From the NCBI GenBank assembly GCA_018001635.1, contig JAGNHS010000006.1, positions 2,905-66,904 on the forward strand: a stretch of 64,000 nt of DNA, given 5' to 3'. The notes beneath the pieces are model-generated. The model searched no databases and had not been told where the DNA came from. It saw only the letters and a list, made by a program, of their open reading frames with translations. Of the stretch, positions 19,491-53,185 are shown piece by piece (position 1 is the stretch's first letter; the number at the start of each line of letters is the position of its first letter). A program made the position numbers and the translations under genes. Origin of the DNA: Pseudomonadota bacterium. Its GTDB lineage: Bacteria > Bdellovibrionota > UBA2428.

Positions 19491-19988
19491 TTATTGATTG
19501 AGTGAAATCAATTTGCCTTGAATGAGTTTGTAGTGAGCGGGGTCTTCTTCGTCGAAGGCCTCGAAGTTAATTTCTTTATTGTTAATTTTAATTTTTCGAG
19601 TTTCATCCAAAAGGGTTTTCTCGCCCTGAAATCTCAAGATTTTAAAAATATGATCATTTCCTACAGAAATCTCGCCTTTGTTTTCTGTGAATAAAAGCAC
19701 TCTTTCAATTTGGTTTTGAATGAGTGTTCCCGCAATTCCCGCGTCGTAATGTAACATGTAGACGCTCTCATCCGGACTAAATGTTTTATTTTCAATTTTT
19801 AAAAGTATGGGTTTTTCTGGACCAATAATTTGCAGGCTTCCTATTTCCTTGCCCTTCCATAACAATTTGCATGAGTTCGAAGAGCAGCTTTCGGCTAAAG
19901 TGAATTCATCAAGTTTTATTTCAGCTTGAGCAAGTGAAATAAAAAAGACTAAAAAAAGACTAATTAATATTAAATTAAAAAACTTCAT
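19491..19988 (-). CDS. Exported hypothetical protein (165 aa)
   Basis: Signal peptide MKFFNLILISLFLVFFISLAQA|E. The start overlaps the stop of the upstream 371-aa gene by 4 nt (ATGA), suggesting coupling. Confidence 0.55.
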   Translation of the reverse strand: MKFFNLILISLFLVFFISLAQAEIKLDEFTLAESCSSNSCKLLWKGKEIGSLQIIGPEKPILLKIENKTFSPDESVYMLHYDAGIAGTLIQNQIERVLLFTENKGEISVGNDHIFKILRFQGEKTLLDETRKIKINNKEINFEAFDEEDPAHYKLIQGKLISLNQ

Positions 19989-38142: not shown

Positions 38143-39591
38143 TTATTTTGTACCTGCCAGCTTAGGGAGTGAGTCGATTGTGGCTTGTGAAATCGCATAG
38201 CCCCTAGTTTGAGCAAGTCTTGCAGAAAGTGCCGATACGTAGGGCACCATATGTTTTCCAGGGCAATCATGACCATCATTTACGTTGAGGCAAACTCCCG
38301 TTAGGCAATGTCCTTTATCTCTATGAGTTCGTACGTGTTCTATAGGATATTTCATAGCGATTTGATCTTGAAGTTTTGTGAGGAGAGTTACAACTTCTTC
38401 AGGCACGGCATCTTTATCGTAATCTCCTGCAATTGAAACTCCGATAGATCGAGCATTGCAATCAGACGCGTGACAACCGCGATAACCTAATGGAGTTCCT
38501 TCAAAAATTTTCCACTCTCCTCGAGCATCCTTCTTAATCACAAAATGATAACCCAAATCTTTAAAAGGTTTTTGAAAGCGGTGAAACAAACTCATATCGA
38601 CAAGATTGGGTGATTGAGATCCATCGGTGTGGTGAATAACTATTTCATCGTAGGTGAGTTCTTGTTTTCTTTCCTGGAACCATTTTGGGTCCTGAGAGCT
38701 GACAGTCTGAGTGCTATATTTTCTTTTTTTTCCATTCACAGAGGAAAGAGCGCGATACTTTTGTCCATGGGCTTCCTCAGACCACCATTGTGCGCGAGAT
38801 ACAATATTGACATTTGAATTTGGGCTAAATCTTCGAGAGCTCACTTTGCTTTTGGCATTTTTAAGAGCGTTTCTGTCATTTTCAACAAGGGATAGAAATT
38901 TTGAATGCTGATTTCGGTAATCACTACTAGATAAAGAGAGCCATAAACTGTCTTCAACACATTTAAATTTTTTAGAAATATTGGAATTTTTTAAGGCTTT
39001 AATGAGGGCCAATTGAGTCTGCGTGACTTCTTGTTCTAAGGAGTCATTCTTAACAAGGGCTTCTTGGTCCATTCCGTGGGTTTTCATTTTTACAAAAAAT
39101 CCCTTTTGCGAATGACTTAAAAAGAAATGTTCTTGCTTTTGAACGGCATTCAAATAATTTATAAGACTCAAGTTTAAGCTACTAATGGCGGACTTTGTTC
39201 GACTCTTTTGAGGCCCATCGCTGAGCTTAAGTTTGAGTCCTTCGATGAAAGAAATTCTTTCATCAAGGTGATCTTTGTTGATGTATATTGCAAGTTGATC
39301 GAGATCATTGACTAGACTTGAATCAGGACAGGCACCCTTGTTAAAAATAAATTCTATAGGATCTGAATCAGTTTTAATATTATTGTTTGAACTTTGAGGA
39401 GTTTTTGTGTTTTGAATTTCTTCTCTTGAGGTTGCTTTTGTTGTTGTGTTTTTGTTGCTGTTCGCCGGATTCCTGTGAAAAATTCTACTAAAAAAACTAT
39501 CTGTAGCTGAAAAAACTGCTGGTATTGAAATTAAATTCAACAAACCTAAAATAAAAAAAACAAATGAGTACTGAGTTTTTTTCATGCCCAC
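38143..39591 (-). CDS. Exported N-acetylmuramoyl-L-alanine amidase (Amidase_2/PGRP domain) with long N-terminal region
   Basis: Signal peptide is present. The C-terminal amidase_2 blocks are IVIHHTDGS, LGYHFVIKKDARGEWKIFEGTPLGYRGCHA and NARSIGVSIAGDY. Confidence 0.8.
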   Translation of the reverse strand: MGMKKTQYSFVFFILGLLNLISIPAVFSATDSFFSRIFHRNPANSNKNTTTKATSREEIQNTKTPQSSNNNIKTDSDPIEFIFNKGACPDSSLVNDLDQLAIYINKDHLDERISFIEGLKLKLSDGPQKSRTKSAISSLNLSLINYLNAVQKQEHFFLSHSQKGFFVKMKTHGMDQEALVKNDSLEQEVTQTQLALIKALKNSNISKKFKCVEDSLWLSLSSSDYRNQHSKFLSLVENDRNALKNAKSKVSSRRFSPNSNVNIVSRAQWWSEEAHGQKYRALSSVNGKKRKYSTQTVSSQDPKWFQERKQELTYDEIVIHHTDGSQSPNLVDMSLFHRFQKPFKDLGYHFVIKKDARGEWKIFEGTPLGYRGCHASDCNARSIGVSIAGDYDKDAVPEEVVTLLTKLQDQIAMKYPIEHVRTHRDKGHCLTGVCLNVNDGHDCPGKHMVPYVSALSARLAQTRGYAISQATIDSLPKLAGTK

Positions 39592-39759: not shown

Positions 39760-42700
39760 TTATTTTTTCTTCTTATTCTCTGTTTTGAATAGTTTTCTAA
39801 GAAGTTTTACAACATTCACTTTTTCTTCTTCCTCGGAGATGAGTTGATAACCTACAAAGTTATCCATTTTAGCTTTCCCGATGAGGAATTGTCCAAGGGC
39901 ATCTTCTTCGCTGTAAGCTGTAAAGTTTATAGTTCCAAAGAATCGTGAATTGCCCATAACTTTTTCAATATTAGATTGAGCTGAATCGCTAAGATCTGCA
40001 ATGAGGTCGCCAAACATGAATGTGAAACGATCGTATTCAGAATCTGGAAATTTGGCTTGCACCTCTAAGGCTTTAGCCGCGCCCACTCCATAATCTGTGC
40101 CTCCACCCAGTTGGACTTTATAGAAGTCATTTTCATGGGCTTCGTCAAAATCATAAGCCACTCCGTCAAAAGCCACGTAGGTAAAAACGATGTTTTTATA
40201 TTTGTGTTTTAAAAGTGAGCGAATGTTGAAAATGATTTCCTTCATTTTCTCTACATATCCCATCATACTTCCTGATAGGTCAGAGATAATAGTGACATGG
40301 GCAGAGATGTCGGGGTCAGGTTGCTGCCGATGATTTTTAGAATGAATGTTTTTCTTCTGTAAAAAGTCCACGCCAACTTCGAAGGGGTCAAGCTCGGAGG
40401 TATCCTCGCCCTCTTCTTCTCGAAGGTTGATCACGCCGAGTCCGAGTTTAATGGCATCGCGAACAATTTTCTTAGCCACATAGGGTTTACGGTCTAAAGG
40501 TTGAGAGCCAACAAATATTTTACGCATTTGTTCGGTTTGTCCCTTGAGTGGTCTTAGGTTGGGTAACTCAACTTCATCCTTTATGAGGCTTTGATAAAGC
40601 TCTAATGGAATTTCAATATAAGAGGGGTCGCCACCGCCGCAGCCTTGACCATTTGAGGGTTTGCCTGTGTCACTATCCTCATCGCTACCTTCGTCGGGTT
40701 CTCCGTCGCCTTCACCATCACCGTCATTTCCATCGCCAGGCTGGTTTGAGGATTTTTCAACATAGTATTCCTTGTCCTTAAGACCTTGGGGCTGCAAAAG
40801 AAGTCCATCATCAGTTACAAAGGGATTGTTGTCTAAATCATTCACTTTTGAGAGTAATCTTTTTATTCCGTTTTGCGCACGTCGATCGAAGACTATTCCG
40901 CCAACTTCAGGCAGCACTTTGAGGCTATAGCCGCTGCCAGTTCGAGTGAGGCCACCATTGTTGGCCGCTTTTGAGAATGCCGCTAAAAATCTTTCTGCAA
41001 CTTTTTGGTGATATCGATTGAGTGCTTTGAGAATTCCGTGAGGAACTTCATTGAGTGCCATAGAACCTACAACATCGTTGATGTTTTTATAAATACTACC
41101 TAGAGGATCAATTTCAATTCCTTCTTTGTTTTTGAGAGTGCTGACAATTCCCTTTGGAACTTCAGTTTGATCGATATGGTAATCTATTAAAAATTCTCTT
41201 AAATTTTTAAATAGATGACCGTAAATTTCTTTGTCTACTGTAGATTTTTCTGCAGCCTCAGGAGTCCATTCTCTAAAGCTAGGCGTTTGATGAATTTCAA
41301 TTCCTTCTTCCCAAGAAGAATTACTATCCAATATTTCCATTTTTTTAAGAGTTGAGACGTTTATTTGTCCTTCAGGGTTGACTCTTATTTTCGCTCTAGC
41401 CAAGCGATATCCAATGACTTTCATTTTAGGTTTGAAACTAAACCAGTCCCACGTCACTTCTTTTATAACATCGATGATAAGTGTGGCTTCTAATTCAACA
41501 GTTTTCCTAAGTATTTTGGCCCAACTGAGTAGAGTAGGGGCTACAGTTTTTCTATTGATGGGTGTGAAGTAACCCATTTCATTACTCACAGATAATTTCG
41601 CAACATCATCTGTCTGATTGTGCAAATTATTCCAGACAACACGCGGATAGGCGTAGGAGAGGTTCCAGTCCTGTTGCACTTGATATCGAATACGTTCAGG
41701 ATCGTGAGTGATGACCTGATAGAGGGTGCCGTCCATATAATCTTGAGGAAGAGGAGCCCCTTGTTGAGCAAGTTGGAATTTTTCTTCGTTGCTGAATTTT
41801 TTAACTAGGGCTAGGTGCCTGTTTTTGATCCATTGATCAGTCAGCTTAGAAAAAATAAACATGACATTATTGCCAAGGTTTGGATTGTTTATGATTTCTC
41901 TAGCATAATTTATAAATTTTTGATCGCGCTCCATTCCTTCCAATTTAATGTTTTCAGGGCGCCTATTGAATTCTTCTCTAATTTCTCTCCAAATTTCGAG
42001 TCCGAGAAAATAAGGATTTGTGAGTGAGGGTCGCGCTACTCTTCCAGCGAGCATCCCAATTTCAGCAGCGTCACCAAAACTTCGTGCATAGTCGGGGTGA
42101 TGTGAGAAAATAATTTCCTCAACGAGCATGGCAAAACCTTCATTGAGTAACTTTGTGTTAACGGCACCAGGAATAAAGCGATTCATTTTTTCAAATTTTT
42201 TCGCCATTTCTAATTTCCAAGGTGCGATATCGCTTGGTAGTTCACTAACAAAGGCTTGAAGAAGGCTTACCGTTTGCTTTCCTGAACTCTGACTAGTCTG
42301 AACAAGGCCATCGCGCCATTGATTGAATCCTATGGGTCTGTCAGCCTTTAAGTCTTTAGGTTCTACATAGGCACCGCTCCAAACATCTTGTGCCATTTCA
42401 AGCGAAAGTAAATGGAAAAACCAATCCTCTACTTCTCGAGGATCTTCATATTTTCCAATATCTGTCATTAGTTCATCGAGCTCAACAGAAACTCCAACGC
42501 GATCATGGGAAGTTTTGTGTTTAAAGTAAGAATTCACATGGAAGAAATTATGGCCATAGACGTGAGCCAATATGTTCATGAATAATATGGGACTTAAGTT
42601 GCTCAAGTAATAGCTATGCTGTGTGCTGTGGCCCGAGAGTACAAATTCTAAAACCCCTTGAAGATTTCGTGCTTGATTGAAAATTGCGGCCCCGTCACTC

Positions 42701-42969
42701 CAGCTGCCGACAGGGTAACGATTCACCGCCGCCATTCCAGCCACTGAAGACGGATTGAGTAATTCTACAATATGTTTTTTTATGCCATTTAGAAGACCTA
42801 ATTTATCGGCGATGTCATGAACTTCAGCTAAACGTTTATGATATTCCGCTGCGTCAGGTTGGTTGTGCGAGTCCGCTATTAAGTGCTCTTGGCAGCTGAA
42901 AGAGTGTTGGGCAAAGATGAAGCTAAGGATACTGAGAAACTTTAGAGTGTTTAATCTAATAAAGCTCAT
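39760..42969 (-). CDS. Fusion protein: N-terminal SpoVR/YcgB-like domain plus C-terminal YeaH/YhbH (DUF444, vWA-like) domain, with signal-peptide-like N-terminus
   Basis: SpoVR block GVLEFVLSGHSTQHSYYLSNLSPILFMNILAHVYGHNFFHVNSYF (about 42540-42660). A Gly/Asp-rich linker (GDGNDGDGEGDGEPDEGSDEDSD) follows. DUF444 blocks are YIEIPLELYQSLIKDEVELPNL, PDPDISAHVTIISDLSGSM and QLGGGTDY. N-terminus is MSFIRLNTLKFLSILSFIFAQHS. Confidence 0.85.
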   Translation of the reverse strand: MSFIRLNTLKFLSILSFIFAQHSFSCQEHLIADSHNQPDAAEYHKRLAEVHDIADKLGLLNGIKKHIVELLNPSSVAGMAAVNRYPVGSWSDGAAIFNQARNLQGVLEFVLSGHSTQHSYYLSNLSPILFMNILAHVYGHNFFHVNSYFKHKTSHDRVGVSVELDELMTDIGKYEDPREVEDWFFHLLSLEMAQDVWSGAYVEPKDLKADRPIGFNQWRDGLVQTSQSSGKQTVSLLQAFVSELPSDIAPWKLEMAKKFEKMNRFIPGAVNTKLLNEGFAMLVEEIIFSHHPDYARSFGDAAEIGMLAGRVARPSLTNPYFLGLEIWREIREEFNRRPENIKLEGMERDQKFINYAREIINNPNLGNNVMFIFSKLTDQWIKNRHLALVKKFSNEEKFQLAQQGAPLPQDYMDGTLYQVITHDPERIRYQVQQDWNLSYAYPRVVWNNLHNQTDDVAKLSVSNEMGYFTPINRKTVAPTLLSWAKILRKTVELEATLIIDVIKEVTWDWFSFKPKMKVIGYRLARAKIRVNPEGQINVSTLKKMEILDSNSSWEEGIEIHQTPSFREWTPEAAEKSTVDKEIYGHLFKNLREFLIDYHIDQTEVPKGIVSTLKNKEGIEIDPLGSIYKNINDVVGSMALNEVPHGILKALNRYHQKVAERFLAAFSKAANNGGLTRTGSGYSLKVLPEVGGIVFDRRAQNGIKRLLSKVNDLDNNPFVTDDGLLLQPQGLKDKEYYVEKSSNQPGDGNDGDGEGDGEPDEGSDEDSDTGKPSNGQGCGGGDPSYIEIPLELYQSLIKDEVELPNLRPLKGQTEQMRKIFVGSQPLDRKPYVAKKIVRDAIKLGLGVINLREEEGEDTSELDPFEVGVDFLQKKNIHSKNHRQQPDPDISAHVTIISDLSGSMMGYVEKMKEIIFNIRSLLKHKYKNIVFTYVAFDGVAYDFDEAHENDFYKVQLGGGTDYGVGAAKALEVQAKFPDSEYDRFTFMFGDLIADLSDSAQSNIEKVMGNSRFFGTINFTAYSEEDALGQFLIGKAKMDNFVGYQLISEEEEKVNVVKLLRKLFKTENKKKK

Positions 42970-45900
42970 TTTTTCTCCTCAGGAATCAATAAATATTCGC
43001 AACGATCGCCGAATCCAGCATGATTTCTTTCCAATTCCGGAACCTTATCTCTTATGAGATCATTACCTTCTAAAAGTTGTGTGACGTATTCAACAGTAAG
43101 AGGTGAGAGTGGAGATTCTTCAGTTTTAAAGGCAAATTCAGCGAATTCAGCTCGGGTGCTGAGCGCGGGTTCGTCTATGATTTCTTCGAGCATTTTCATC
43201 ATGAAAACGTTGGCATTGTCCCAGGGTAGATTGGCAATGGCTTGGTCTATAGCCCAAAGAAAAATAATCGCTAAATCACTTGAGCTCAAATTTCTGTGGA
43301 GTCCTTTTTGTACTTCTTTGAGTTTGGGATTTAAAAAACCCTGATTAGAGACAAACATTTGAAAGAGGTCTCTTATTTTGTCTGTAGTGCTTGCAAATTC
43401 TTCACGCACTTCTTTTGAGTTTTTCATGGAATCAAGCCAAGCTTGAGAGTTGGATTCTTGAAATCCATTGGATTGATAAAATTTGTAAAACAAATTTTTC
43501 ATGAGCGATTCAATGTTGATAATTAAGCGGCTTATGTATTCACGTTGTCCTTCTTGTTCCTGAATTGAGCCTTTAATTTTTAAAAAATCATCTAGGGAAT
43601 CGCTCTCAAGAACGCTAGACGCGGGAAGTTTGAAAGGAATAACGGGTTTTGAATTATGATGAGCATCCATGAGGTCTTGGAATTCGGAAAGGAAACCAGA
43701 GTGGTTATTTATTTTTAATCGAACTGGGGATAGATCCAAATTCCAAAATCTTAATTCTGGACGATTTCTTAAGTTGAGATAGACTCCCGTGATGAGCGGT
43801 TTGAGGTAGTACATTTCATTTTGAAGACTCGCCCTAAAAAACTTATGATTTTGGATTGAGTTTATGAAATGATTATAAAAATTGATTCTAAAAGAGTTAG
43901 AATTAAATTCTGCGAAATCAAGTCTTCCGCGAAGGTTGTCAAAGGTGACTGGTTTTACAACAACATGTTTCTTAATTTGGTTTCTTAATGTGGTTGAATT
44001 TATAGTGGAACCACCTTCTTCCACTTGATGATCATCATTGTACCATTCATCAACATTCCAATCGTCTTTGAGGTCTTTGCTGTCATGGGTATCGCTTTTA
44101 GAGCTAGTCACATAATAGAGTGGAGCGGGGGCTAGAGAGTCATCTTTAGCTTCTGTGAATAGAGAGTTAGTAACGGGCATTAAAAAGTTTCGCGCGTGAG
44201 CTTTGGGGAAAATTTGTGCAATTTCAGAAAGAATATGTGGATTCACTAAAATCAGTTTGTTTGAAAGAGTTAATTCTTGGAGACTTCGAGCTCTGATTTT
44301 TGAAATCAAACCCGAGGCTTTGGCCTCACGTGGAAAATCACCAAAGTTAATGAGATCAGAAAAACGAGCTAAGATGGAGGGCTCATATTGAGCACCTTCA
44401 ACTTGTGAAAGTGCTGCAATGATTTGTGATTCAATAGAACTAGCATCATCGATATATTGATCTCTAATTTCACGATTGGATGCAGGGTTGATGGTTACAA
44501 ATAAAGAGATATTTCTAACAGGAATTTCGATGGTCATTTTATCTTCAAGACGAGAGACTCTGACCAAGTTGTTGTTCAGTAAGTTTTGGATATAAGACAT
44601 AACTCGACTGAGAACGTTGGCGTTCTTAGCTTTGTGAAGATCGTCAATAAGTATGAAACCTCGGTAGCCGAGAGGAAGTGATAAGAAATTGTCTAAGTGT
44701 TTCAGTGCGTCTTCAACATATAAACTTTTTCCAGTGGCTTCTTCTTTTTTATCTACCAAATCTTCTACTTTTAGGAAAAAGGCTTGAGCATTTTCATCTA
44801 AAGGTCTGTTGAAGTCGTAAACTTTTATATCGAGTAATTGGATGAGCTTCTCAAAGAAAAAAGTTTTTCCTAAACTTGTTTCACCGAAAAATACGGCTGA
44901 TGAGGGAATTTGCTTTGAACTATCGGACCCTTGAGTTTGCGAAAGAATAAGCCTGAAAATTCTTTCTTTGAGATCCAGTTGACCAGCATATCCTAGTTTT
45001 GTGAGATCCACTGCGGCTCGAGCGGTGTCTTTAATTTTATGAAGAACGTCTTCGGGTTCAAGGGATTTATAATTTAAGGGGATGGGGAAAACTTTGGCTA
45101 AAAATCTTTCTACATAGTTTTCGTCAATCACTCGACTTCTTCTGAGTTTATGGTCGTCGACTAATGATTTTCTAAAAATGGAATAGGAGCGTACAAAGGC
45201 TTCGATGGGTTCTTGATTGAGTGAATTGGCAACAGCTTCAATTCGATTGGCTAAAAATTTGGTGATGTTCAAAAACGGAGCGCTGTTTCTTTCGGCGCCA
45301 GATTCGTTTCCATTGTATCGAAATGAGTAATTCAGAGTTCTAATGTCTTCTCGATAGAATAAATTTCTCAAAATGTTAGAGCGGTGCTCTACGCTTGGAT
45401 ATTCAAGTCGAACTATTTCAAAATCTTTTTGAAGATCCATAAAATGCGACTCAAGGCCTAAATCTTTTTCTAAATCTTCGATTTGTTCAGGAGTGGCTAC
45501 AATAATTTCTGAAACGCTTGGGGTAGCTTCATCTCTTAAGCGCCATTGCTTTTTTAATTTAGGTTGGATTCTTCTACCTTCGGAGGCCAACCACCACATG
45601 ATGTGAGGGAAAATTGTATTGGGTTTGTCTATGTCGCTACGAGAAGAACTGTTTCCATCTTTGTCACTGCCTTCGTTGGGGCTGTTGGCGCTCGATTGAG
45701 CCTCGGAAGCCGTTTCAGCTAATAGCTCAGTTTTTTTCATGGCCGCAGGATCGCTAATTCTAAAAGGTTTGATGTCGCTTTTTTCTCCAACTAGTGGACG
45801 TTCATTGCGTAAAAGGTCGCTCGCATCTGCTAAAAGAACAACACTATTTTCTTGGCTGAGTCTTCTCATGGCGTCTAGATTGCCAAAGATTTCTTCTTGA

Positions 45901-48900
45901 TGAACTTTTCCACCTTGTGGATATCTGAATATTGAAAGATGGGGATTTCGAAAATTCCAGGAAGTGTTTAAATTTGGATTTCCATTAGTATCTCTTTCTA
46001 GGGCCACGTTGTAGCGACTCGACCAATGAGTCATTAAAAAGCGAAGCATGAGTTTTTTGATGTTTTCAGGGACAACTATGATTCTATGTTTAGGTTTTTC
46101 AGGTTTTTTAGAGAGCTCACTCAAAATGGGTCTTAAATTTGGGAAAACTTGAAGATCGTCTGAGGTGAGCGCACTCACCGACATTCTTCTGATGTCAGGA
46201 GTGGATCTCGGAGTGTTCGGAGGCCAGTTGTACCATTGTGAGGTTAAGAATCTTGCATCGATTTCAAATAGACCTTTGTCTACTAAGCCTGCTTTGAATT
46301 CATGAGGATGAGCTTCTTGAAGTTTTAAAAGTTTTTTAGGAGTTGTTAGAACAACAGTTGTCACAGATTTGAAGGAGTCTGATGGAGAGCTTAAATCTTT
46401 AAGGTGTCGTCCTTTTCCTTCCGTGGCTAAGAGAAAAAGTCCAGAAAGTTTATGGGGCGAAGAGGGATCGTAAATGTGATCAGACGAGGTTGAGCGTGCT
46501 GATTCGGAGAAGCTTTCTTCATCGAGTTCATCGCCACCTTGGTTTGTTTCTACAACTTCTGGTTCATCTTCTTCATGCTTGTGTTTAGTTCCTTTGTTTC
46601 TGCCGTCGTTCTCTTCTTCATCCTCTTCGTCATCTTCTGTCTTTTTGTTTGAAGCTTTAGACTCGGGATCATTATTAGCGCTTACGGTTTCGATTCCCAT
46701 TTGTCTTTCAGAGTCGCTTGAGGCGTAGTCGAGTATGCTAAACGAGGATGCACTGTCACTATCTTCAGAGTTTTTGCCGTCTGTTTCTAATATGAAAGTT
46801 TGTAAAAGCTCGTCGGAGCCTGCAAATAGTACGTTTTGTGTTGTTGATTCAGAGGCAAGTTTTAATTCCTTGCGCATTTCCCGAGCATCGGATTGATGGT
46901 CAAAGAAGTAGAGTTCAAAATCGTTTCCACCGGGTTTCCATTTAAGGGACCAACCTGTTTTTTTGTTATCGAGTTTAAGGAGCATGAGGTTATAAAAGTT
47001 GGCGTAGTCTTCGTCAGACACTACAAGGAAAGTTTTTTTACCTTTTTTAGAAGGATCTACGACTAAGGAATCTAGGTACTCGTCTAAGAGTGGGTAAAGT
47101 GGTCCTTTCCCCCCAGGTCCGAAATTTAAATCTTTATAAGTTTTAGCTTGCTCAGCTTCATTTCCGTCGAGTGCTTTGGAAAGTGTTGAATTAATTGAGC
47201 GTAATCCAGTGGAGGATGAAATGCTCCATCGACTTCCTATCCAAAATAAGCGACCCTCTTTTTCGTTTTCCTGAACAATTCTTTCTTTAAGGCGAATATT
47301 AATATTTTCTTTTGAGGGAACAACAAGTTTAGAGACGTAATTAAAACATCTCATTTTATATTTTGCAGAAAAATAATCTTCATTGGGAGTGTCAACCCAA
47401 TACAGGGCACCATTGCCATCGGGAAGCACTCGGTCGCTAATGCGATTGGCGGTCACATAACTTTTTGTAAGCCAACCTGAGGAATCTGGAATGTTGTTGG
47501 CTGTGAATTCAATTTTTCCAGCTTTGAGTTGAGATTGAATTTCGTATCCTAGCAGATACACGCCACCCGTGTTCTGACGAGTCCTTTTGAGAAAGAGCAT
47601 AACGTAAATGCTGTTAGCGTGCTTTCTTAAACCTTTAAAAACTCTTACACCCTCAATTTGAGAGAATGAAAATGGAAGCTCTCGTGTGGCGAAGAAAGTG
47701 TTCTTTATGTTTTCTCCAACTCGACCCTCGTAATTAAAAAGGGTCACAAGATTGAATTTTCCTTCTAAATTAGGTTGCTGAGAGTTGTTTGGAAGCATTC
47801 CAAACAAATGGATTTTGAAGGCTTCCAATTGCTTCGAAGATTCGCTGAGTGGAAGATGAATGTCAGTGGTGTATAGAACAGCACGAATGGAATCTTTGGA
47901 AATGGATGTTCTTGAATTTTTCTTTGTCTTTGTTTTTGAGCTATTGGAATAGATAAGCTGTCCGGGAATGAATGATGAATCATCTTTGTTTAAATGCGAT
48001 GTTGAATCAGCAGGTGTTTCGTGTCGATCTGCGGAATGCGTATCCTCAAGATAGACTCCGGTTTTTTCATTGAGTTGTGATTGTTTGTCGTTATTGAATT
48101 CTCGATAAACAACATGGGGGCTCATGATTACGGGAAACTCGTTTTTAGCTTGAAGAAATACTGTTTTCTTTTTGGGGTCGCTTTCAGAGACGTTAAGATA
48201 GGCGGTGACTCGCAGTCCTCCGGGATTTTTTTGAGAATCACTTCTATAGGTTTTGGGCCCCACGCGAGGAGTGCTGTTGTCGAAAACTAAACCAAGGTTT
48301 TCCACATTCTTGATTCGTAATTCTAGTTCTTCTTTGCTGAAACTGTACGTATTCGATATAACCTGCATGTCTTTAACGCTGACGTGACCCATGGATTCTT
48401 CAAGTTCAATCGCGAAAGTTCCCCCTCCAGGATAATATTGAGTTTTTCCTGATAAAATTAAATAATGTTTTTTGTAAACCGCACCAGAAATGAGTTCGTC
48501 ATCAGGGGTGTTGTCTGAAAATCCAAAAATGGGTGCTGATTTTCTTTTTTCGATTTTAGGTTGTGGAAGATCAAAGGACTCTAGAATTATAACGTTGTCG
48601 TTGTTGAAAGGGTCGAATTTGAGTTTGGTAAATTGTTCTTGAACTTCGACAACCTGAATACTTCTGTTTCTGGATTTTAGTCTTAACAGAATGCTTTTAT
48701 CCAATGAGAATAAAACCTCAACAGAGGAATCGTTTGAGAGAGATCGAGTTAAAAACTTTTTATTGTCTTGATCCCAGCTGAGTCTTCCTTTTTGGGGTGG
48801 AGTACCTTCATATTGAAAGGAGAGCCCATCTCCTAAGGGTTCAAAGAATTGAGTGACTCCCGAAATGGCCATGTTAGAAACTTGAGGTTCGGGTCTTTTC

Positions 48901-49844
48901 TCGAGGACATCCACTAAGGGAGGATTAGTGAGCACACTCAGTTTAAGAGATTTTCCAGAATTAATATCGATGTCTCTATATCGACTTGTAAAAGTTTTTT
49001 TATCGATTTTGGAATTGGGGTCGAGATAATCCAATAAAAGCTTCACTTTTTTTAACCAAATATCAACGAGAGGGTGCTCTTTGTCGTTTTTCCATTTTTC
49101 ATAAACTGTTTTTAGAAGATAGGGGGAGTATGCTTTGTCGGGTGAATAGTCGGCAAAAAGTCTTATGAGTCCTTGGTCTGTGGGGTGAAATCTATAATCG
49201 AGGAGCACCGGTTCAGATATTTTAAATTCACCTGTTTCGATGCCTCCGTTTTTAACAATAGCAAAAGTGATTCCGTCAGAACCCATTTGAGGAATGCCTT
49301 GCTTAACTGAGATGATATACATACACGAGTTGTCTACAGGGTATTGTACAATCGTGATGTCTTTGGGGTCCTTTATGTTTTCAAGATAAATTTTACGTTT
49401 CGTGAGAGGATCGATGATTGGGACGGGAGTGGCAAATTTGTTGGGTATTTTTTGGGATTCATTAGCGCCAATAATGAGTGAGCTGGCTGCTTTTTTTTCT
49501 GAAGTGTTTTTGTTAACGATATAAATTTGTCCATCGAGAATGACTAAGGCTTCTTGATTTCCTTGTTGAGTGACAGGAGCTAAGAGTACAAAAGTTTCAG
49601 CGGATCGCTTATTCACGCCAAGCACTTCTTTTTGAATCAGTGGAGTAGAGTTTTCAGCTCCAGTATTAAAAAAATAAATTCCCTTTTTTTTGCCATTGAG
49701 TTCAGTGTTGAATACCAACTCGTATAAGGCTCTTGCATTATGAGGATGTGGAAAAATGAAAGACCCCTCGTCGGCCGCGCGTAAGGCTCCACTTTGTCCG
49801 ACAAGTAGGGCGGCAAGGGCAATATGTTTGAGGAGGTGTCTCAT
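42966..49844 (-). CDS. Giant (2292 aa) protein: signal peptide, unassigned N-terminal region of about 880 aa, acidic linker, and Clp/Hsp100-like AAA+ modules (last one with intact Walker A/B)
   Basis: Uninterrupted 6.9-kb ORF with signal peptide MRHLLKHIALAALLVGQSGALRA|AD. Walker A is FFGETSLGKTFFFE (about 44863-44886) and Walker B is GFILIDDLHKA (about 44641-44665), followed by NISLFVTINPAS. An upstream Clp D1-like block is IIVATPEQIEDLEKDL...FEIVRLEYPSVEHRSNILRNLF. ATGA overlap with the downstream gene. Confidence 0.8.
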   Translation of the reverse strand: MRHLLKHIALAALLVGQSGALRAADEGSFIFPHPHNARALYELVFNTELNGKKKGIYFFNTGAENSTPLIQKEVLGVNKRSAETFVLLAPVTQQGNQEALVILDGQIYIVNKNTSEKKAASSLIIGANESQKIPNKFATPVPIIDPLTKRKIYLENIKDPKDITIVQYPVDNSCMYIISVKQGIPQMGSDGITFAIVKNGGIETGEFKISEPVLLDYRFHPTDQGLIRLFADYSPDKAYSPYLLKTVYEKWKNDKEHPLVDIWLKKVKLLLDYLDPNSKIDKKTFTSRYRDIDINSGKSLKLSVLTNPPLVDVLEKRPEPQVSNMAISGVTQFFEPLGDGLSFQYEGTPPQKGRLSWDQDNKKFLTRSLSNDSSVEVLFSLDKSILLRLKSRNRSIQVVEVQEQFTKLKFDPFNNDNVIILESFDLPQPKIEKRKSAPIFGFSDNTPDDELISGAVYKKHYLILSGKTQYYPGGGTFAIELEESMGHVSVKDMQVISNTYSFSKEELELRIKNVENLGLVFDNSTPRVGPKTYRSDSQKNPGGLRVTAYLNVSESDPKKKTVFLQAKNEFPVIMSPHVVYREFNNDKQSQLNEKTGVYLEDTHSADRHETPADSTSHLNKDDSSFIPGQLIYSNSSKTKTKKNSRTSISKDSIRAVLYTTDIHLPLSESSKQLEAFKIHLFGMLPNNSQQPNLEGKFNLVTLFNYEGRVGENIKNTFFATRELPFSFSQIEGVRVFKGLRKHANSIYVMLFLKRTRQNTGGVYLLGYEIQSQLKAGKIEFTANNIPDSSGWLTKSYVTANRISDRVLPDGNGALYWVDTPNEDYFSAKYKMRCFNYVSKLVVPSKENINIRLKERIVQENEKEGRLFWIGSRWSISSSTGLRSINSTLSKALDGNEAEQAKTYKDLNFGPGGKGPLYPLLDEYLDSLVVDPSKKGKKTFLVVSDEDYANFYNLMLLKLDNKKTGWSLKWKPGGNDFELYFFDHQSDAREMRKELKLASESTTQNVLFAGSDELLQTFILETDGKNSEDSDSASSFSILDYASSDSERQMGIETVSANNDPESKASNKKTEDDEEDEEENDGRNKGTKHKHEEDEPEVVETNQGGDELDEESFSESARSTSSDHIYDPSSPHKLSGLFLLATEGKGRHLKDLSSPSDSFKSVTTVVLTTPKKLLKLQEAHPHEFKAGLVDKGLFEIDARFLTSQWYNWPPNTPRSTPDIRRMSVSALTSDDLQVFPNLRPILSELSKKPEKPKHRIIVVPENIKKLMLRFLMTHWSSRYNVALERDTNGNPNLNTSWNFRNPHLSIFRYPQGGKVHQEEIFGNLDAMRRLSQENSVVLLADASDLLRNERPLVGEKSDIKPFRISDPAAMKKTELLAETASEAQSSANSPNEGSDKDGNSSSRSDIDKPNTIFPHIMWWLASEGRRIQPKLKKQWRLRDEATPSVSEIIVATPEQIEDLEKDLGLESHFMDLQKDFEIVRLEYPSVEHRSNILRNLFYREDIRTLNYSFRYNGNESGAERNSAPFLNITKFLANRIEAVANSLNQEPIEAFVRSYSIFRKSLVDDHKLRRSRVIDENYVERFLAKVFPIPLNYKSLEPEDVLHKIKDTARAAVDLTKLGYAGQLDLKERIFRLILSQTQGSDSSKQIPSSAVFFGETSLGKTFFFEKLIQLLDIKVYDFNRPLDENAQAFFLKVEDLVDKKEEATGKSLYVEDALKHLDNFLSLPLGYRGFILIDDLHKAKNANVLSRVMSYIQNLLNNNLVRVSRLEDKMTIEIPVRNISLFVTINPASNREIRDQYIDDASSIESQIIAALSQVEGAQYEPSILARFSDLINFGDFPREAKASGLISKIRARSLQELTLSNKLILVNPHILSEIAQIFPKAHARNFLMPVTNSLFTEAKDDSLAPAPLYYVTSSKSDTHDSKDLKDDWNVDEWYNDDHQVEEGGSTINSTTLRNQIKKHVVVKPVTFDNLRGRLDFAEFNSNSFRINFYNHFINSIQNHKFFRASLQNEMYYLKPLITGVYLNLRNRPELRFWNLDLSPVRLKINNHSGFLSEFQDLMDAHHNSKPVIPFKLPASSVLESDSLDDFLKIKGSIQEQEGQREYISRLIINIESLMKNLFYKFYQSNGFQESNSQAWLDSMKNSKEVREEFASTTDKIRDLFQMFVSNQGFLNPKLKEVQKGLHRNLSSSDLAIIFLWAIDQAIANLPWDNANVFMMKMLEEIIDEPALSTRAEFAEFAFKTEESPLSPLTVEYVTQLLEGNDLIRDKVPELERNHAGFGDRCEYLLIPEEKK

Positions 49845-49862
49845 TTTCCAGCTTTACTCAGT

Positions 49863-52463
49863 TTATTTTTTGTCGTGCTTGTTGACGTGCTCCACTAAGA
49901 ATCGAAGCGCTTGCACGAAAGATCTCTCGTTGTATCCGTATCTTTCCAAGTTGCTGAGTATCTTTTGCCCAGCCGTTTGAGTTTCAGTGGCCACGGATCT
50001 TCCTTGCATGAAATCAAGGAGGCTTTGGTAGCTGTTAGTTTTTAAGTTCTGACTCATCAACCAATCAGAAATAGCTTTTTCAAGCTTAATCCACATGGGG
50101 AGGGGTGATCCGTCAGTATTATGAAGCGCTAAATTGGCAACATAAGCTTGGAGATCTGGGGGATTAAGATCGTCGCCCCAGCGTTTTCTAAAGGCCTTTT
50201 TAATTTCAGTGAGTCTATCAAAATTGATGGCAGTAGGTATGTCGCCTTTTGATTTAGTGTGGTGTGTGGCTTTAGAGTCTTGCGCTAAGTGTGAAATTTC
50301 CGAAGTGACTGCATCGTAAATACTGCGCACTTTATTGGTGTCGTTAGCAATAATCGAGTTCACATCGTTCATGAGCTTAGGAAGTATGAGCTCTGCTGCA
50401 ATTCTCTCGGCGAGTTCGAGCCATTTAGCGTATTCAGGGCGTTCCTTTTGAAATTGGTTTTCGTGAAGGGTGAGTCTAAAGGCGTCTTTTATTTCTACAG
50501 GAGTTAAAGTGTTTGAATGTCCGGGAGATTGTGCGAGTTCAAGGGCCTTTTTAAAGACCACTTCAATATCGCGTTGTCCAATTCCATTATCGCCTTCATT
50601 GAGAAGAGCTTCCTTTGAGAATTCCGTTAAAGCCGCTAGAACTTCTTGATTCTCAACAACTTCATCTCCTGTGATAATTCGAAGACGGTCAATTGGGTCG
50701 GTGAACCATCTTAGATCGGGACGTGTGATACGAGTGAGAATGTTGGCGTCTTTGAGTTTATCGATATTTGTTTCAAGCGAAGAGCCTGCGGCAATGCATC
50801 CCAAGAAATATAGCGAATAGGGTGAAATATCGACAAAGGAACTTTTGCTAGCGCTGATTTCAGCTGGCGAATCAATTTTAACTCTTACGGCGTAATGACC
50901 CTCAGGGCCTGAAATATTTCCATTGCTGTCGGGTTCTGCATAAATTTCCTTGATGAGGGGTGAATTTGAGCTTTCGTTTAGTGTGGCGAGATTTTTGTGT
51001 TCTGTTGAATCCAATTTGCGTGCACTAAAGTTATTGGGTTTGAGAGTGAGTAAAAGTGCAAGCTCTCTCCATCTTGGATGGAGGAGGTTTTTCATGGCAA
51101 TATGTTGTAAGCGAGATAGAAGAGCGTCGGTGTCCATGCGTTTTTTGGAATCTGCAATGGAACTATAGTTTGCAGAAAACACATTAAAGGTGTCCATCGC
51201 TAAAGCGGGGGTGTCTGAACCTTTGGCGACGCCTTCTTGTAATACAGAAAGTAGGAAGTGGAGAACTACGGGGTCGTTTCGAGTAACGTCGTCCCAAATG
51301 ATCATGGAGCCATCGTTTTGAGAGAGGGGTCCGTTAAAATGGAAGCCGAGAGTGTTATTGGCGCCTTTAATTCTTGCGGCTACGTTGGCAGTTCCAATTA
51401 AAGAAGAGGTGTCGGGGGCTTCTTCCATAGGACGAATAATGGGATCGCGATTGGAGGCAAGGCTGATGTCTTTTCTTGCAATACCCACAAAATTTTCAAA
51501 TATGGCTAAATAGTCAGCTACGGTGAGAGAAGTTGCTTTTGTGGCTTTTAAAATATGTTTTTTATAAAAAGGAATGAGAAATTCTCTTAGGATATCTTCT
51601 GCATGAGAATCGCGGGCGACAGCTTGGCCAGGATTTCTTTCGTAGAAATCACCAATGTCGAAACCTAACATTTTAGAGGCGGTGGCACCTAGAGTTTTTG
51701 CGTAAGCCACTTTGAGTTCGGTGGGAAGTAGGCTGAAGGGACTTCTTTGAAGGCTTGTAACATTAAGGCGATCGCTATCTTTGACTAAGAATTGATCGAG
51801 TCTTTGACCTAATGAAGGATCAGTTTGTTTTATCATGTCCAAATTTTTCCAAAAATAGGTGTATTCCTTGAATAGAGGATCTCGAACTGAGAGGTGGGCT
51901 AGGGCATATCGAATGACGTATTCGAGAACTGTTTTTCCAGTTCCTGGAGGTCCCTTTAAAAGTGGTCCTTTACTTCCGCGCATACCTTGTGCGGCTTCGG
52001 AGATGATTTTTGCCAAGCTCGAGCTAGCTTCATATTGGCCTACGAGAAAAAGTCCGCCAGTTGCGGGCAAGGCATCATGATAGACTTTGGGAACATTATA
52101 ATATTGGTGCTTGTAGACGGGGTCTAAAACTCGGCGATATCCAAAATTATTCAAGACCGCTAATTGTTTTTGATCAGCATTCATTAAAAGTAAGGGATGC
52201 TCTTTTATGAGATCGGGTAATTTTGAAAAAGGATACTCTACGGCGTATTCTTCGGTGCCGGCAATAGCTAGTTGAGCCACTGTTTCGGGCACTAAAAGAG
52301 TTGAGCATAATTTTGGATCAACATGAAAACTTTTAGGAGTGCTAGTTGTTGATTTAGCCGCGGATGCTTTTTTGCTTTCTGCTGCAAATGAAAAATTTTC
52401 TAAGCTCATTAAAAAAATAACGACGTGTGTAATTTTTAGAATTGTAGGTAGGCTTTTTCTCAT
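49863..52463 (-). CDS. PrkA/YeaG-like AAA+ protein (866 aa) with signal-peptide-like N-terminus
   Basis: PrkA-type N-terminal AAA blocks are SLAKIISEAAQGMRGSKGPLLKGPPGTGKT (Walker A about 51932-51955) and DGSMIIWDDVTRNDPVVLHFLLSVLQEGVAKGSDTPALAMDTFNVFSANYSS. A long helical C-terminal region follows. N-terminus is MRKSLPTILKITHVVIFLMSLENFSFA|AE. Confidence 0.75.
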   Translation of the reverse strand: MRKSLPTILKITHVVIFLMSLENFSFAAESKKASAAKSTTSTPKSFHVDPKLCSTLLVPETVAQLAIAGTEEYAVEYPFSKLPDLIKEHPLLLMNADQKQLAVLNNFGYRRVLDPVYKHQYYNVPKVYHDALPATGGLFLVGQYEASSSLAKIISEAAQGMRGSKGPLLKGPPGTGKTVLEYVIRYALAHLSVRDPLFKEYTYFWKNLDMIKQTDPSLGQRLDQFLVKDSDRLNVTSLQRSPFSLLPTELKVAYAKTLGATASKMLGFDIGDFYERNPGQAVARDSHAEDILREFLIPFYKKHILKATKATSLTVADYLAIFENFVGIARKDISLASNRDPIIRPMEEAPDTSSLIGTANVAARIKGANNTLGFHFNGPLSQNDGSMIIWDDVTRNDPVVLHFLLSVLQEGVAKGSDTPALAMDTFNVFSANYSSIADSKKRMDTDALLSRLQHIAMKNLLHPRWRELALLLTLKPNNFSARKLDSTEHKNLATLNESSNSPLIKEIYAEPDSNGNISGPEGHYAVRVKIDSPAEISASKSSFVDISPYSLYFLGCIAAGSSLETNIDKLKDANILTRITRPDLRWFTDPIDRLRIITGDEVVENQEVLAALTEFSKEALLNEGDNGIGQRDIEVVFKKALELAQSPGHSNTLTPVEIKDAFRLTLHENQFQKERPEYAKWLELAERIAAELILPKLMNDVNSIIANDTNKVRSIYDAVTSEISHLAQDSKATHHTKSKGDIPTAINFDRLTEIKKAFRKRWGDDLNPPDLQAYVANLALHNTDGSPLPMWIKLEKAISDWLMSQNLKTNSYQSLLDFMQGRSVATETQTAGQKILSNLERYGYNERSFVQALRFLVEHVNKHDKK

Positions 52464-52608: not shown

Positions 52609-53148
52609 ATGCGAGTCGTTTTTGTTTTTTCTTTTTTATGGGCTGCGCTTCTTTATTCTGCCACAACGAGTCAAGATTCTGCGAGCACTATATATTTTAA
52701 GGTGCTCAAGGGTTTTGATGTAGAAAAAAAGAAATCAAATGCTGAAGTAGACGCATTAGTCGGCAAAAAAATTCGCATTCCTGGATTTATGGTTCCTCTT
52801 GAATATAAATCTCAAAAGGTGACTGAGTTTTTGTTAGTACAGTCTCTTCCCTCTTGCATTCACGTACCTCCCCCCTCTCCTAATCAAACCATTATGGTGA
52901 AGATGAAGGATAAAAAAACAGTGTCTTTGAGTATGGATCCCATTTGGGTGACAGGAATCTTAAAATTGGTCAAACAAGACAAATATACATTTGGTGATGC
53001 CGTTTATAGCATTGAGGGCGAGTCTTCTGCTCCTGTAGATTCAAAAGACTTTAATAAAGTGGGTTTATTTATGGGAGATCAGGTGGATATGGCTCCTTTA
53101 GAGGAGAATCCTTTTGGTGGTGAGAGTAAAACTAAGAAAAAGAAATAG
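52609..53148 (+). CDS. Exported DUF3299 domain protein
   Basis: Signal peptide is present. The DUF3299-like core is KKIRIPGFMVPLEYKSQKVTEFLLVQSLPSCIHVPPPSPNQTIMVKM...PIWVTGILK. Confidence 0.65.
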   Translation: MRVVFVFSFLWAALLYSATTSQDSASTIYFKVLKGFDVEKKKSNAEVDALVGKKIRIPGFMVPLEYKSQKVTEFLLVQSLPSCIHVPPPSPNQTIMVKMKDKKTVSLSMDPIWVTGILKLVKQDKYTFGDAVYSIEGESSAPVDSKDFNKVGLFMGDQVDMAPLEENPFGGESKTKKKK

Positions 53149-53185
53149 AAATAGTTTAAGAAATAGACTTAAAGGGTACGACATT

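Follow-up and report, generated by a model that had tools for sequence, protein, structure and literature searches.

The locus described here raises two questions: whether it represents a real, new form of the PrkA/YeaH/SpoVR module, and where its products act. The canonical trio of PrkA/YeaG, YeaH and SpoVR occurs in many phyla and has been connected with sporulation, with survival of starvation and with stress; to our knowledge, it lacks an agreed biochemical mechanism. All coordinates refer to the window, which is the whole 64,000-nt stretch of DNA that was analysed, and the three genes lie on its minus strand. The lengths of the three ORFs, the 18-nt gap and the 4-nt overlap given in a first-pass annotation were exact in the ORF listing (Table 1), and the motifs that it had named were located in the corresponding proteins (GPPGTGKT in ORF1, GETSLGKT in ORF2, DLSGSM, HVYGHN and NEGFA in ORF3).

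Table 1. Features of the three-gene locus. Leaders and cleavage sites are predicted; scores are those of the hydrophobic 12-mer.
Feature	Position	Strand	Remarks
ORF1, 866 aa, divergent PrkA/YeaG-type AAA+ protein	49863..52463	-	Pfam, ortholog and 9xip profile matches
ORF1 signal-peptide-like N-terminus, aa 1-27, MRKS...FSFA, then AE	52383..52463	-	score 2.20 from aa 8
ORF1 post-leader Cys53	52305..52307	-	Cys 8-34 aa past hydrophobic segment in 10/12 orthologs
ORF1 Walker A GPPGTGKT, aa 171-178	51930..51953	-	G176, K177 invariant in 8 orthologs
ORF1 Walker B MIIWDD, aa 387-392	51288..51305	-	D391 invariant
ORF1/ORF2 intergenic gap, 18 nt	49845..49862	-	gaps of 3-61 nt in other loci
ORF2 giant, 2292 aa	42966..49844	-	same-position orthologs of 1796-2291 aa in other loci
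ORF2 signal-peptide-like N-terminus, aa 1-23, MRHLLKHIALAALLVGQSGALRA, then AD	49776..49844	-	score 2.17 at aa 4
ORF2 N-terminal region, aa 24-860	47265..49775	-	moderate conservation; no Pfam match in 9 members
ORF2 variable region with acidic low-complexity stretch, aa 861-1194	46263..47264	-	low occupancy, low identity; D+E 19%
ORF2 D1, degenerate AAA+-like, without P-loop, aa ~1249-1595	45060..46100	-	predicted from AF2 model and Foldseek
ORF2 D2, intact AAA+ module, ClpB-NBD2-like, aa ~1640-1900	44145..44927	-	
ORF2 D2 Walker A GETSLGKT, aa 1654-1661	44862..44885	-	G, K, T invariant
ORF2 D2 Walker B FILIDD, aa 1730-1735	44640..44657	-	D1734, D1735 invariant
ORF2 C-terminal all-helical domain, aa ~1945-2292, including conserved Cys2282	42969..44012	-	secondary structure of the model
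ORF2/ORF3 ATGA stop/start overlap	42966..42969	-	identical 4-nt overlap in 9/12 loci
ORF3 SpoVR::DUF444 fusion, 1069 aa	39760..42969	-	Pfam SpoVR and DUF444
ORF3 signal-peptide-like N-terminus, aa 1-25, then Cys26	42895..42969	-	score 2.09 at aa 9
ORF3 SpoVR part, aa ~30-515	41425..42882	-	profile aligns with canonical SpoVR residues ~70-460
ORF3 inter-domain linker, aa ~516-690	40900..41424	-	outside canonical SpoVR/DUF444; poorly conserved
ORF3 DUF444/YeaH part, aa ~691-1069	39763..40899	-	profile aligns with canonical DUF444 from ~30 to the end

Domain composition of the three products

Profile searches with the window proteins recovered SpoVR, DUF444 and PrkA_C above their gathering scores and AAA_PrkA below it. 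ORF1 is a PrkA-type AAA+ protein: it scored 26.6 bits with PrkA_C (PF06798, gathering score 25) and 20.5 bits with AAA_PrkA (PF08298, below the 25 required), the latter family being matched by 8/8 ORF1 orthologs (best E = 1e-7). The ORF1 family profile matched the solved PrkA structure 9xip_A with E = 4e-25 and was collinear along chain residues 55-687, the PrkA_C part corresponding to residues 459-687. Canonical PrkA is about 170-230 aa shorter than ORF1. Along with the Walker residues, N432 and R451 were invariant in the ortholog alignment.

ORF3 joins SpoVR and DUF444/YeaH end to end, each of them near-complete, and its MIDAS is intact. Pfam scores were 46.6 bits for SpoVR (PF04293) and 60.7 bits for DUF444 (PF04285), with a gathering score of 27 in each case, and both domains were present in all ORF3 homologs found. 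The match to TIGR02877 (NCBIfam) had E = 5e-17, yet was far under the equivalog cut-off. The SpoVR motifs HVYGHN (aa 136-141) and NEGFA (aa 276-280) were recognized, with H136, H140 and N276-A280 invariant, as was the vWA MIDAS (DLSGSM, aa 897-902; GGGTDY, aa 955-960), the invariant residues of the DUF444 part being D897, S899, S901, G956, G957, Y960, G987 and D988. The two domains share one frame in reversed order, as had been proposed: in non-clade loci, a separate DUF444 gene is followed by SpoVR. SpoVR::YeaH is a natural Rosetta-stone fusion, and the covalent joining of the two proteins argues that both act as one physical unit.

The nature of the giant ORF2 was less apparent from its sequence. 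Pfam gave a weak AAA_22 match only, the Clp families AAA_2, ClpB_D2-small and Clp_N had no Pfam match in 9 giants, and no significant match was obtained between PDB sequences and the profile of the giant or that of the SpoVR::DUF444 fusion. An AF2 model of the C-terminal half of the giant, built on a 33-row alignment, reached a pLDDT of 83.6 and a pTM of 0.75. When this model was submitted to Foldseek, the best 50 matches were all ClpA/ClpC/ClpB/Hsp104, and the alignments to double-ring Clp/Hsp100 proteins extended over 700-800 columns. Within D1, P-ENIKK stands after the beta1 strand in place of GxxGxGK[ST], and VLLAD and ATPE are kept. According to the model, the C-terminal half of the giant is a ClpA/ClpB-like tandem AAA+ unit composed of a predicted pseudo-ATPase (D1) and of a D2 with all catalytic motifs; the earlier suggestion of an inserted 2292-aa protein with Clp-like AAA+ modules is thus backed at the level of the predicted fold, with a D1 that has no P-loop. 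The recruitment of such a Clp-like unfoldase by the module speaks for a role in protein remodelling and not in kinase signalling. Another AF2 run, on a two-row alignment, gave a pLDDT of 40 and was set aside. The giant was also considered as a PrkA paralogue. This was not shown, since the profile-profile comparison with the PrkA-like family aligned the Walker A region only (43% probability). No clpP gene was found in the neighbourhood of the operon.

Recurrence of the operon

Word-index homolog searches returned 1 match with the whole giant and 0 with its C-terminal half, and so missed a family whose clusters at 50% identity number over 150; an exhaustive HMMER search recovered 207 cluster representatives. 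Four of the four distant family members that were sampled lay within the same operon. A survey of gene neighbourhoods found the fused and inserted architecture again, with identical gene order and tight junctions, in at least 14 independent loci of 21-50% identity with unrelated flanks, a recurrence which indicates that the arrangement is not due to chance. The three genes make up one conserved operon, and what it encodes is a derived paralogue of the module formed by PrkA/YeaG, YhbH/YeaH and SpoVR/YcgB. The giant is not obligatory, since one locus (L009) carries a two-gene version without it. Promoter and terminator scans at the operon yielded chance-level results only. A strong Shine-Dalgarno sequence (GAGGAG) was seen upstream of the ORF3 start, and those of ORF1 and ORF2 were weak.

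Named carriers were Bdellovibrionota MAGs and one Bradymonadales MAG (Bacteriovoracaceae, Bdellovibrionales, Pseudobdellovibrionaceae, Oligoflexia, Bradymonadales), and all carriers were uncultured MAGs or metagenome contigs. We know of no established predators among the Oligoflexia, which speaks against a prey-directed role of the operon. In a metagenome pattern scan, almost all of the matches listed were canonical SpoVR genes. The literature searched held no description of a SpoVR::DUF444 fusion or of an exported module. The first-pass annotation knew of no described equivalent; this holds for the literature searched, but the locus is not singular, given the 207 giant clusters and the two-gene version. 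Taken together, these results identify the operon as a real, new form of the known PrkA/YeaH/SpoVR module, carried here by a predatory-type bacterium, and as a member of a conserved family that is undescribed in the literature searched, not a one-off.

Leaders, cysteines and site of action

Leaders were scored with a hydropathy heuristic based on a hydrophobic 12-mer and inspected, and cleavage sites were predicted, that of ORF1 via the -3/-1 rule. By this heuristic, a short single N-terminal hydrophobic segment was present in 27/28 clade proteins versus 3/94 canonical SpoVR/DUF444 proteins (median leader hydropathy 2.43 and 0.9, respectively), in every complete ORF1 N-terminus examined and in 87% of 114 full-length giant representatives. 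Hydropathy revealed no TM-like segment beyond the leader in the proteins of the operon, up to 2292 aa in length. Leader substitutions between the window and a 96%-identical relative (L008) kept charge and hydrophobicity. The leaders of neighbouring genes in the window were of the same style, and cytoplasmic enzymes scored low. Judged from hydropathy and conservation across orthologs, all three products start with a conserved Sec-type signal-peptide-like leader, in agreement with what had been noted at first, and the three-protein family appears to be exported.

An error of gene calling, in which wrong starts yield spurious leaders or the long ORFs are decayed and non-functional, might account for such N-termini, and the weak Shine-Dalgarno sequences of ORF1 and ORF2 as well as a few database gene calls with wrong starts (for example ORF3 of locus L003) would fit it. 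Comparison among loci effectively refutes this explanation: leaders that differ by conservative substitutions are found in at least 14 loci sharing 21-50% identity, downstream starts of the operon ORFs would delete conserved residues, 6.9-kb ORFs stay open across more than 100 cluster representatives, and the GAGGAG sequence of ORF3 is strong.

Cysteines were also distributed in a conserved manner. Cys26 of ORF3 was invariant in a six-sequence alignment (A1), a post-leader Cys was found in 15/15 ORF3 orthologs, and the C-terminal Cys of the giant was kept in 11/12 loci and in 102 of the 114 representatives. ORF1, the giant and ORF3 are otherwise Cys-poor, and lone conserved Cys residues in such proteins would fit inter-subunit disulfides formed in an oxidising compartment. 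Low Cys content in itself was dropped as evidence for export, since it is not shared by the exported proteins of neighbouring genes in the window. ORF3 was likewise not retained as a lipoprotein (SFS/C, the slash marking the predicted cleavage site), the Cys lying 6-16 residues beyond the hydrophobic core in orthologs and the lipobox not being conserved.

In mechanistic terms, it is awkward that the Sec route should deliver an ATPase of 2292 aa to a periplasm free of ATP. This difficulty vanishes if the hydrophobic segments are uncleaved anchors or non-functional, and the module is a membrane-bound form of the canonical stress module that works on the cytoplasmic side of the inner membrane, where ATP is available as usual. 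Canonical homologs are all cytoplasmic and AAA+ proteins normally depend on cytosolic ATP, in line with this proposal. We nevertheless consider it improbable. The hydrophobic cores span no more than about 9-15 residues (such as IALAALLVG of ORF2), Lys/Arg residues precede them and small-residue sites followed by acidic residues come after (A/AE, A/AD, S/CQ), and the leaders look like those of obviously secreted neighbours. From the flanking charges and the positive-inside rule, an N-in, C-out topology, i.e. export, is predicted.

The grouping of AAA+ and vWA proteins with a partner of very large size also recalls NTPase-vWA conflict or defence systems, such as the MoxR-vWA ternary or other NTP-dependent conflict systems, and weak matches were obtained for one ORF1 ortholog to bpMoxR (E 0.0015) and for one to BrxC/BrxD (E 0.0085). 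A relative of these systems is nonetheless very improbable here: PADLOC gave no match for any of the three proteins, whose closest relations are PrkA, SpoVR and DUF444 and not MoxR, the operon is flanked by housekeeping genes and not by defence islands, and cytoplasmic anti-phage systems are not expected to carry signal peptides.

If the complex is exported, it may serve the envelope of the producer itself, through peptidoglycan or envelope assembly in the predator periplasm, the P-loops binding nucleotide without turnover or using a minor periplasmic pool. The leaders speak for this as much as for a prey-directed role, and a secreted Amidase_2 peptidoglycan amidase is encoded 168 nt downstream of the operon on the same strand. 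Moreover, canonical SpoVR (Bacillus) and CbgA (Myxococcus) have been connected with spore cortex formation, as cited in PMC5430801, and an envelope role would parallel these phenotypes. Such an envelope role can be entertained, but strikes us as unlikely. The amidase neighbour is kept only in the near-identical L008 and is absent from the other loci, no ATP supply is known for the periplasm, and the invariance of the Walker B, sensor-1 and Arg-finger residues across the two ATPases speaks for hydrolysis and not for binding alone.

With the hydrolysis motifs of both motors intact and with no ATP supply in the bacterial periplasm, the site of action would most likely be a nucleotide-containing compartment, and it is on this ground that we infer a prey-directed function of the operon. 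Our leading interpretation, to which we assign a probability of about 40%, is an exported three-protein, ATP-driven remodelling or unfolding machine, acting most likely in the prey cell or bdelloplast during predation. The three proteins would leave the cytoplasm of the producer and assemble outside it into a protein-remodelling or unfolding machine. AAA+ rings would drive it, an adaptor role would fall to the MIDAS/vWA half of ORF3, docked on the AAA+ ring as in MoxR-vWA pairs, and SpoVR would be held permanently beside this adaptor through the fusion. In its most explicit version, which we regard as doubtful, predators would secrete into prey a self-contained unfolding and remodelling machine in which disulfides join the PrkA-type ring, the Clp-like giant and the SpoVR-vWA adaptor, and the ATP of the prey would drive the dismantling of prey proteins or complexes. 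Export would make this a highly unusual example of AAA+ motors that bacteria use outside the cytoplasm and the operon a candidate for a new class of predation effectors in Bdellovibrionota. A prey-directed machine, if true, would also provide the first direct biochemical handle on the enigmatic PrkA/YeaH/SpoVR module.

Comparison with known systems

The operon shares with the canonical module the same three families, their association in one operon, and the Walker A/B, HxGHN, NEGFA and MIDAS motifs. It differs in several respects. The canonical order is prkA, DUF444, spoVR as separate genes, DUF444 preceding SpoVR in the non-clade loci where both halves were found, whereas here it is prkA, giant, spoVR::DUF444, with a Clp-like protein of about 1800-2300 aa inserted between prkA and the fusion. 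Canonical SpoVR is a stand-alone protein of about 450-510 aa, whereas it is fused with DUF444 in all clade members. All products of the operon carry predicted leaders, in contrast to 3 of the 94 canonical SpoVR/DUF444 proteins, and the PrkA Pfam scores of ORF1 are near threshold. Cofitness among the genes of the canonical module has been reported for six bacteria (bioRxiv 10.1101/072470). In Bdellovibrio bacteriovorus the canonical module corresponds to bd0228-bd0231 (PMC5430801). The activity of canonical PrkA is disputed, since the B. subtilis protein has been reported to be an ATP-dependent protease (PMC9512850), whereas that of B. anthracis displayed negligible protease or kinase activity (PMC13001217).

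Like the class I Clp/Hsp100 proteins (ClpA, ClpB, ClpC, Hsp104), the modelled giant would possess two tandem AAA+ modules. In contrast to them, it has no Clp sequence signature, no P-loop in D1 and no nearby ClpP. Its first 850 aa or so are unrelated to these proteins, and it further includes a variable region with an acidic low-complexity stretch, some 350 aa of helical domain at the C-terminus and a predicted signal peptide.

Partnership between AAA+ and vWA proteins has a precedent in MoxR-type pairs, including NorQ-NorD (PMC9976466). RavA-ViaA, NorQ-NorD and CbbQ-CbbO rely on MoxR ATPases, whereas PrkA-type and Clp-type proteins are found here and the vWA protein is a DUF444 fused to SpoVR, so that these pairs offer an analogy of mechanism only and not membership.

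Clp-like AAA+ proteins that work outside the cytosol are exemplified by HSP101 of the Plasmodium PTEX translocon and by TorsinA, whose partner LULL1 is degenerate. No specific relationship in sequence could be detected between these eukaryotic proteins and those of the operon, and their compartments (parasitophorous vacuole and ER) have ATP supplies, unlike the bacterial periplasm. If true, a prey-directed machine would be the equivalent in bacteria of exported AAA+ machines, of which Plasmodium HSP101 is one.

Architecture of the operon and homologies of its products

The ORF listing gave three minus-strand genes at coordinates identical to those of the first-pass annotation, which had read them as a rebuilt, apparently exported PrkA - giant ATPase - SpoVR::DUF444 operon. 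The gap between ORF1 and ORF2 is 18 nt, ORF3 overlaps ORF2 by ATGA, and a strong GAGGAG Shine-Dalgarno sequence lies upstream of ORF3. The GC content of the region (~40%) is ordinary for the window, and simple promoter and terminator scans of the operon region were uninformative, giving chance-level signals only. An N-acetylmuramoyl-L-alanine amidase (Amidase_2) with a textbook signal peptide is encoded on the same strand 168 nt downstream of ORF3; this neighbour is kept only in the near-identical locus L008 and is absent from the other loci. Divergent from ORF1 lies a DUF3299, ZrgA, ABC ATPase and MacB/FtsX permease cluster, which looks like Zrg-type zinc uptake. In a Bradymonadales locus (L015), homologs of three zinc-cluster genes follow the operon at a distance of ~1.6 kb, and this proximity in both may be a coincidence or a metal link.

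Features of the operon, its surroundings and selected comparison loci (window positions unless a locus is named)
Feature	Position	Strand	Remark
ORF1 (PrkA-like)	49863-52463	minus	866 aa
ORF1 C53	52305-52307		shortly after leader; conserved in 10/12 orthologs
ORF2 (giant)	42966-49844	minus	2292 aa
Giant variable region	46263-47264		aa 861-1194; separates two halves; acidic stretch, e.g. EDDEEDEEENDGRNKGTKHKHEEDEPE
ORF2 C2282	42999-43001		near C-terminus of giant
ORF3 (SpoVR::DUF444)	39760-42969	minus	1069 aa
ORF3 C26	42892-42894		shortly after leader; 15 orthologs compared
Amidase_2 protein	38143-39591	minus	482 aa
DUF3299/ZrgA/ABC cluster	52609-55711	plus
Other signal-peptide ORFs (examples)	2034-3176, 19491-19988, 24440-25477, 32003-33211, 33315-34394
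Zinc-cluster homologs	L015:14602-16759
PrkA-like gene and fusion	L009:848-6453
Four genes downstream of fusion	L001:13459-20915, L006:11371-18542
Long SpoVR homologs	L017:9485-11734, L018:9482-11734

ORF1 matched PrkA_C in Pfam at 26.6 bits (gathering score 25) and AAA_PrkA at 20.5 bits (below 25); among its orthologs AAA_PrkA was matched in 8/8 and PrkA_C in 4/8. The family profile matched the solved 'Serine protein kinase' (PrkA) structure 9xip (E = 4e-25) in a collinear alignment running from the pre-Walker-A region to the C-terminus, and G176 and K177 of Walker A, D391 of Walker B, N432 and R451 are invariant in the ortholog alignment. These matches and the invariant Walker residues indicate that ORF1, initially typed as PrkA/YeaG, is a divergent but genuine PrkA relative.

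ORF3 matched SpoVR (46.6 bits) and DUF444 (60.7 bits) in Pfam, so that profile searches recovered all three domains of the known module in the operon. NCBIfam returned YhbH-type matches far under equivalog cut-offs, and the cluster annotation of ORF3 reads 'SpoVR family protein'. The family profile covers canonical SpoVR residues ~70-460 and canonical DUF444 from residue ~30 to the end, with a linker of ~175 aa between the two parts; this near-full coverage shows that ORF3 unites two complete proteins, one after the other. Family-wide, HVxGHN and NEGFA of SpoVR do not vary, and neither do the core residues of the vWA MIDAS elements DxSGSM, GGGTDY and GD. Among 80 loci surveyed in species-representative genomes, SpoVR followed by DUF444 in a single frame occurs in the fused clade only, and every other locus with both halves has DUF444 before SpoVR in separate genes. 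Together with the profile boundaries, this bears out the fusion in reversed order.

Cyanobacteriota and Vampirovibrionales MAGs (L017 and L018) encode SpoVR homologs of ~750 aa, ~270 aa above the canonical length, with neither a hydrophobic leader nor a fused DUF444. In seven Armatimonadota/Capsulimonadaceae loci (L027, L028, L043, L052, L061, L064 and L079) DUF444 and SpoVR are not adjacent, and their spacing of 1.3-3.4 kb suggests an extra gene between them in an operon of canonical order.

The giant protein and the distribution of the family

In the ortholog alignment, the giant starts with ~850 aa that hold no known domain, passes into a variable region of low occupancy (aa ~860-1195) with an acidic low-complexity stretch, and ends in a well conserved C-terminal half. 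Sequence methods revealed a single P-loop in the family, AAA_22 being matched in 8/9 members (weakly, and as the only Pfam match, in ORF2 itself), and no Clp family match in the 9 members. A profile-profile comparison with the PrkA-like family matched the Walker A region only. As AlphaFold with a two-sequence alignment reached a pLDDT of 40, 33 homologs were used instead, and the C-terminal 1098 aa were then modelled with a pLDDT of 83.6 and a pTM of 0.75. The top 50 Foldseek matches of this model in the PDB were all class-I Clp/Hsp100 proteins (ClpA, ClpC, ClpB, Hsp104), with E ~1e-13 over 700-800 aligned columns corresponding to two tandem AAA+ modules. The first, D1, is degenerate: it has no P-loop, with 'P-ENIKK' after the beta1 strand, and is a pseudo-ATPase. 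The second, D2, is intact, with at least 80% conservation in each of five motifs: Walker A (G.Ts.GKT), Walker B (iL.DDlH), sensor-1 (TlNP), Arg finger (Sfl.Rw) and sensor-2 (AR.FL). The Clp-like AAA+ modules first proposed for the giant thus hold at the level of the fold, with the refinement that D1 lacks a P-loop.

Word-index searches recovered six fusion clusters and one or zero giant homologs; the variable region may have swamped the search with the whole giant as query. Exhaustive HMMER with the giant C-terminal profile against 1.84 billion representatives recovered 207 at E <=1e-3 and 154 at E <=1e-30, mostly of 1750-2330 aa. Rarity judged from the word-index search alone (6, 1 and 0 homologs vs >150 clusters at 50% identity) is badly wrong for this family. 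Where sampled database giants carry an annotation, it is 'hypothetical protein'.

Four distant giants sampled across the E-value range all had a PrkA-like gene (811-867 aa) on one side and were followed, with an overlap or directly, by another gene. This downstream gene encodes a full-length SpoVR and DUF444 fusion in two loci and a 1068-aa protein matching DUF444 only in another, and is interrupted by the contig end in the last. Recurring in 14 or more independent loci whose flanks are unrelated, with a 4-nt giant/fusion overlap in 9/12 loci, the architecture forms a conserved family, and a gene-calling artefact is effectively excluded. The family is taxonomically restricted, its named carriers being Bacteriovoracaceae (including the nearest relative of the window, at 96% identity), Bdellovibrionales, Pseudobdellovibrionaceae, Oligoflexia and one Bradymonadales MAG. 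On L009, from a Bdellovibrionales MAG, the fusion follows the PrkA-like gene after 2 nt and no giant was found on the sequence examined, so the giant looks like an add-on inserted into a two-gene core; that contig ends 847 nt upstream, and a giant may lie elsewhere in the genome. Outside its species, the window is most closely related to L001 and L006 (45-46% identity), which share four further genes on the downstream side of the fusion and in its direction (321/343, 941/936, 487/471 and 715/601 aa), none with a Pfam match or a counterpart beside the window operon.

Conserved leaders and cysteines

All complete N-termini examined show positive residues, a hydrophobic core, then a small-residue site and acidic residues, the ORF3 homolog of L003 fitting once an upstream TTG start is taken. 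Using the best 12-residue hydropathy within the first 60 residues, 27/28 fused-clade proteins scored at least 1.6 (median 2.43), vs 3/94 canonical SpoVR/DUF444 proteins (median 0.9), in line with the signal-peptide-like N-termini noticed initially; 87% of 114 full-length giant representatives also did so (median 2.22). Within the window, the scores of the operon proteins are matched by those of neighbours with textbook leaders, and low values were obtained for cytoplasmic enzymes (GuaA, formyltransferase, ABC ATPase). Leader substitutions between the window and L008, its relative at 96% identity, are conservative. Export of the three proteins is strongly suggested, though not proven, by this hydropathy heuristic and the conservation. 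The rival reading of cytoplasmic, membrane-tethered proteins would require uncleaved cytoplasm-facing anchors; cores this short (~9-15 residues in the proteins of the window) and the distribution of charges speak against it. No further TM-like segment was found anywhere in the operon proteins despite their length. Signal-peptide ORFs are unusually frequent in the window, which fits a predatory Bdellovibrionota genome with a large secretome.

The operon proteins are Cys-poor (0.13-0.23% vs a window median of 0.87%), but in each of them a single Cys is conserved, with a similar surrounding motif, C-[E/D/A]-x-x-[L/F]. Across the window, L001-L016 and L088-L092, the ORF3 Cys lies 6-16 residues past the leader core in 13/15 orthologs; in the exceptions, L015 and L016, the first Cys is inside the core and the motif Cys ~10 residues further on. 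The giant Cys lies 6-21 residues from the C-terminus in 11/12 loci; in 102/114 representatives it is among the final 30 residues. L092 is the single case in which both the ORF1 and giant Cys are missing. We infer from this pattern that, in an oxidising compartment, the subunits may be linked by disulfides or share a metal site.

Site of action and relation to known systems

Hydrolysis residues are invariant in both motors, ORF1 and giant D2, and the periplasm, to our knowledge, is without ATP; the most economical reading is therefore that the exported proteins would act in the prey cell or bdelloplast. In a rival reading they would serve the producer's own envelope or cortex. Another, an NTPase-vWA conflict system, found no PADLOC support. 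Taken together, the results support the first-pass interpretation: the operon is a real, conserved family and a new variant of the PrkA/YeaH/SpoVR module, with a function that we infer from sequence. The fusion links SpoVR and YeaH physically, the giant ties the module to Clp-type unfolding, and the leaders imply a predicted extracytoplasmic AAA+ activity in predatory bacteria.

A full-text literature search found no description of a SpoVR-DUF444 fusion, an exported version or a giant partner, in agreement with the first-pass annotation. Canonical YeaG, YeaH and YcgB are mutually cofit in six bacteria and were proposed to act in one pathway (bioRxiv 10.1101/072470). In B. subtilis PrkA was reported to be a Lon-like protease that depends on ATP (PMC9512850), and in B. 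anthracis to belong to clade III of the AAA+ proteins, with negligible protease or kinase activity (PMC13001217). Since B. bacteriovorus HD100 carries the canonical operon bd0228-bd0231 (PMC5430801), the fused family is best seen as a derived paralogous system, not a replacement. Canonical SpoVR and DUF444 are separate proteins with DUF444 first, whereas the fused clade carries them in one frame with SpoVR first. For exported Clp-like AAA+ machines, the precedents among the closest folds are eukaryotic: PTEX Hsp101, and TorsinA with its degenerate partner LULL1.
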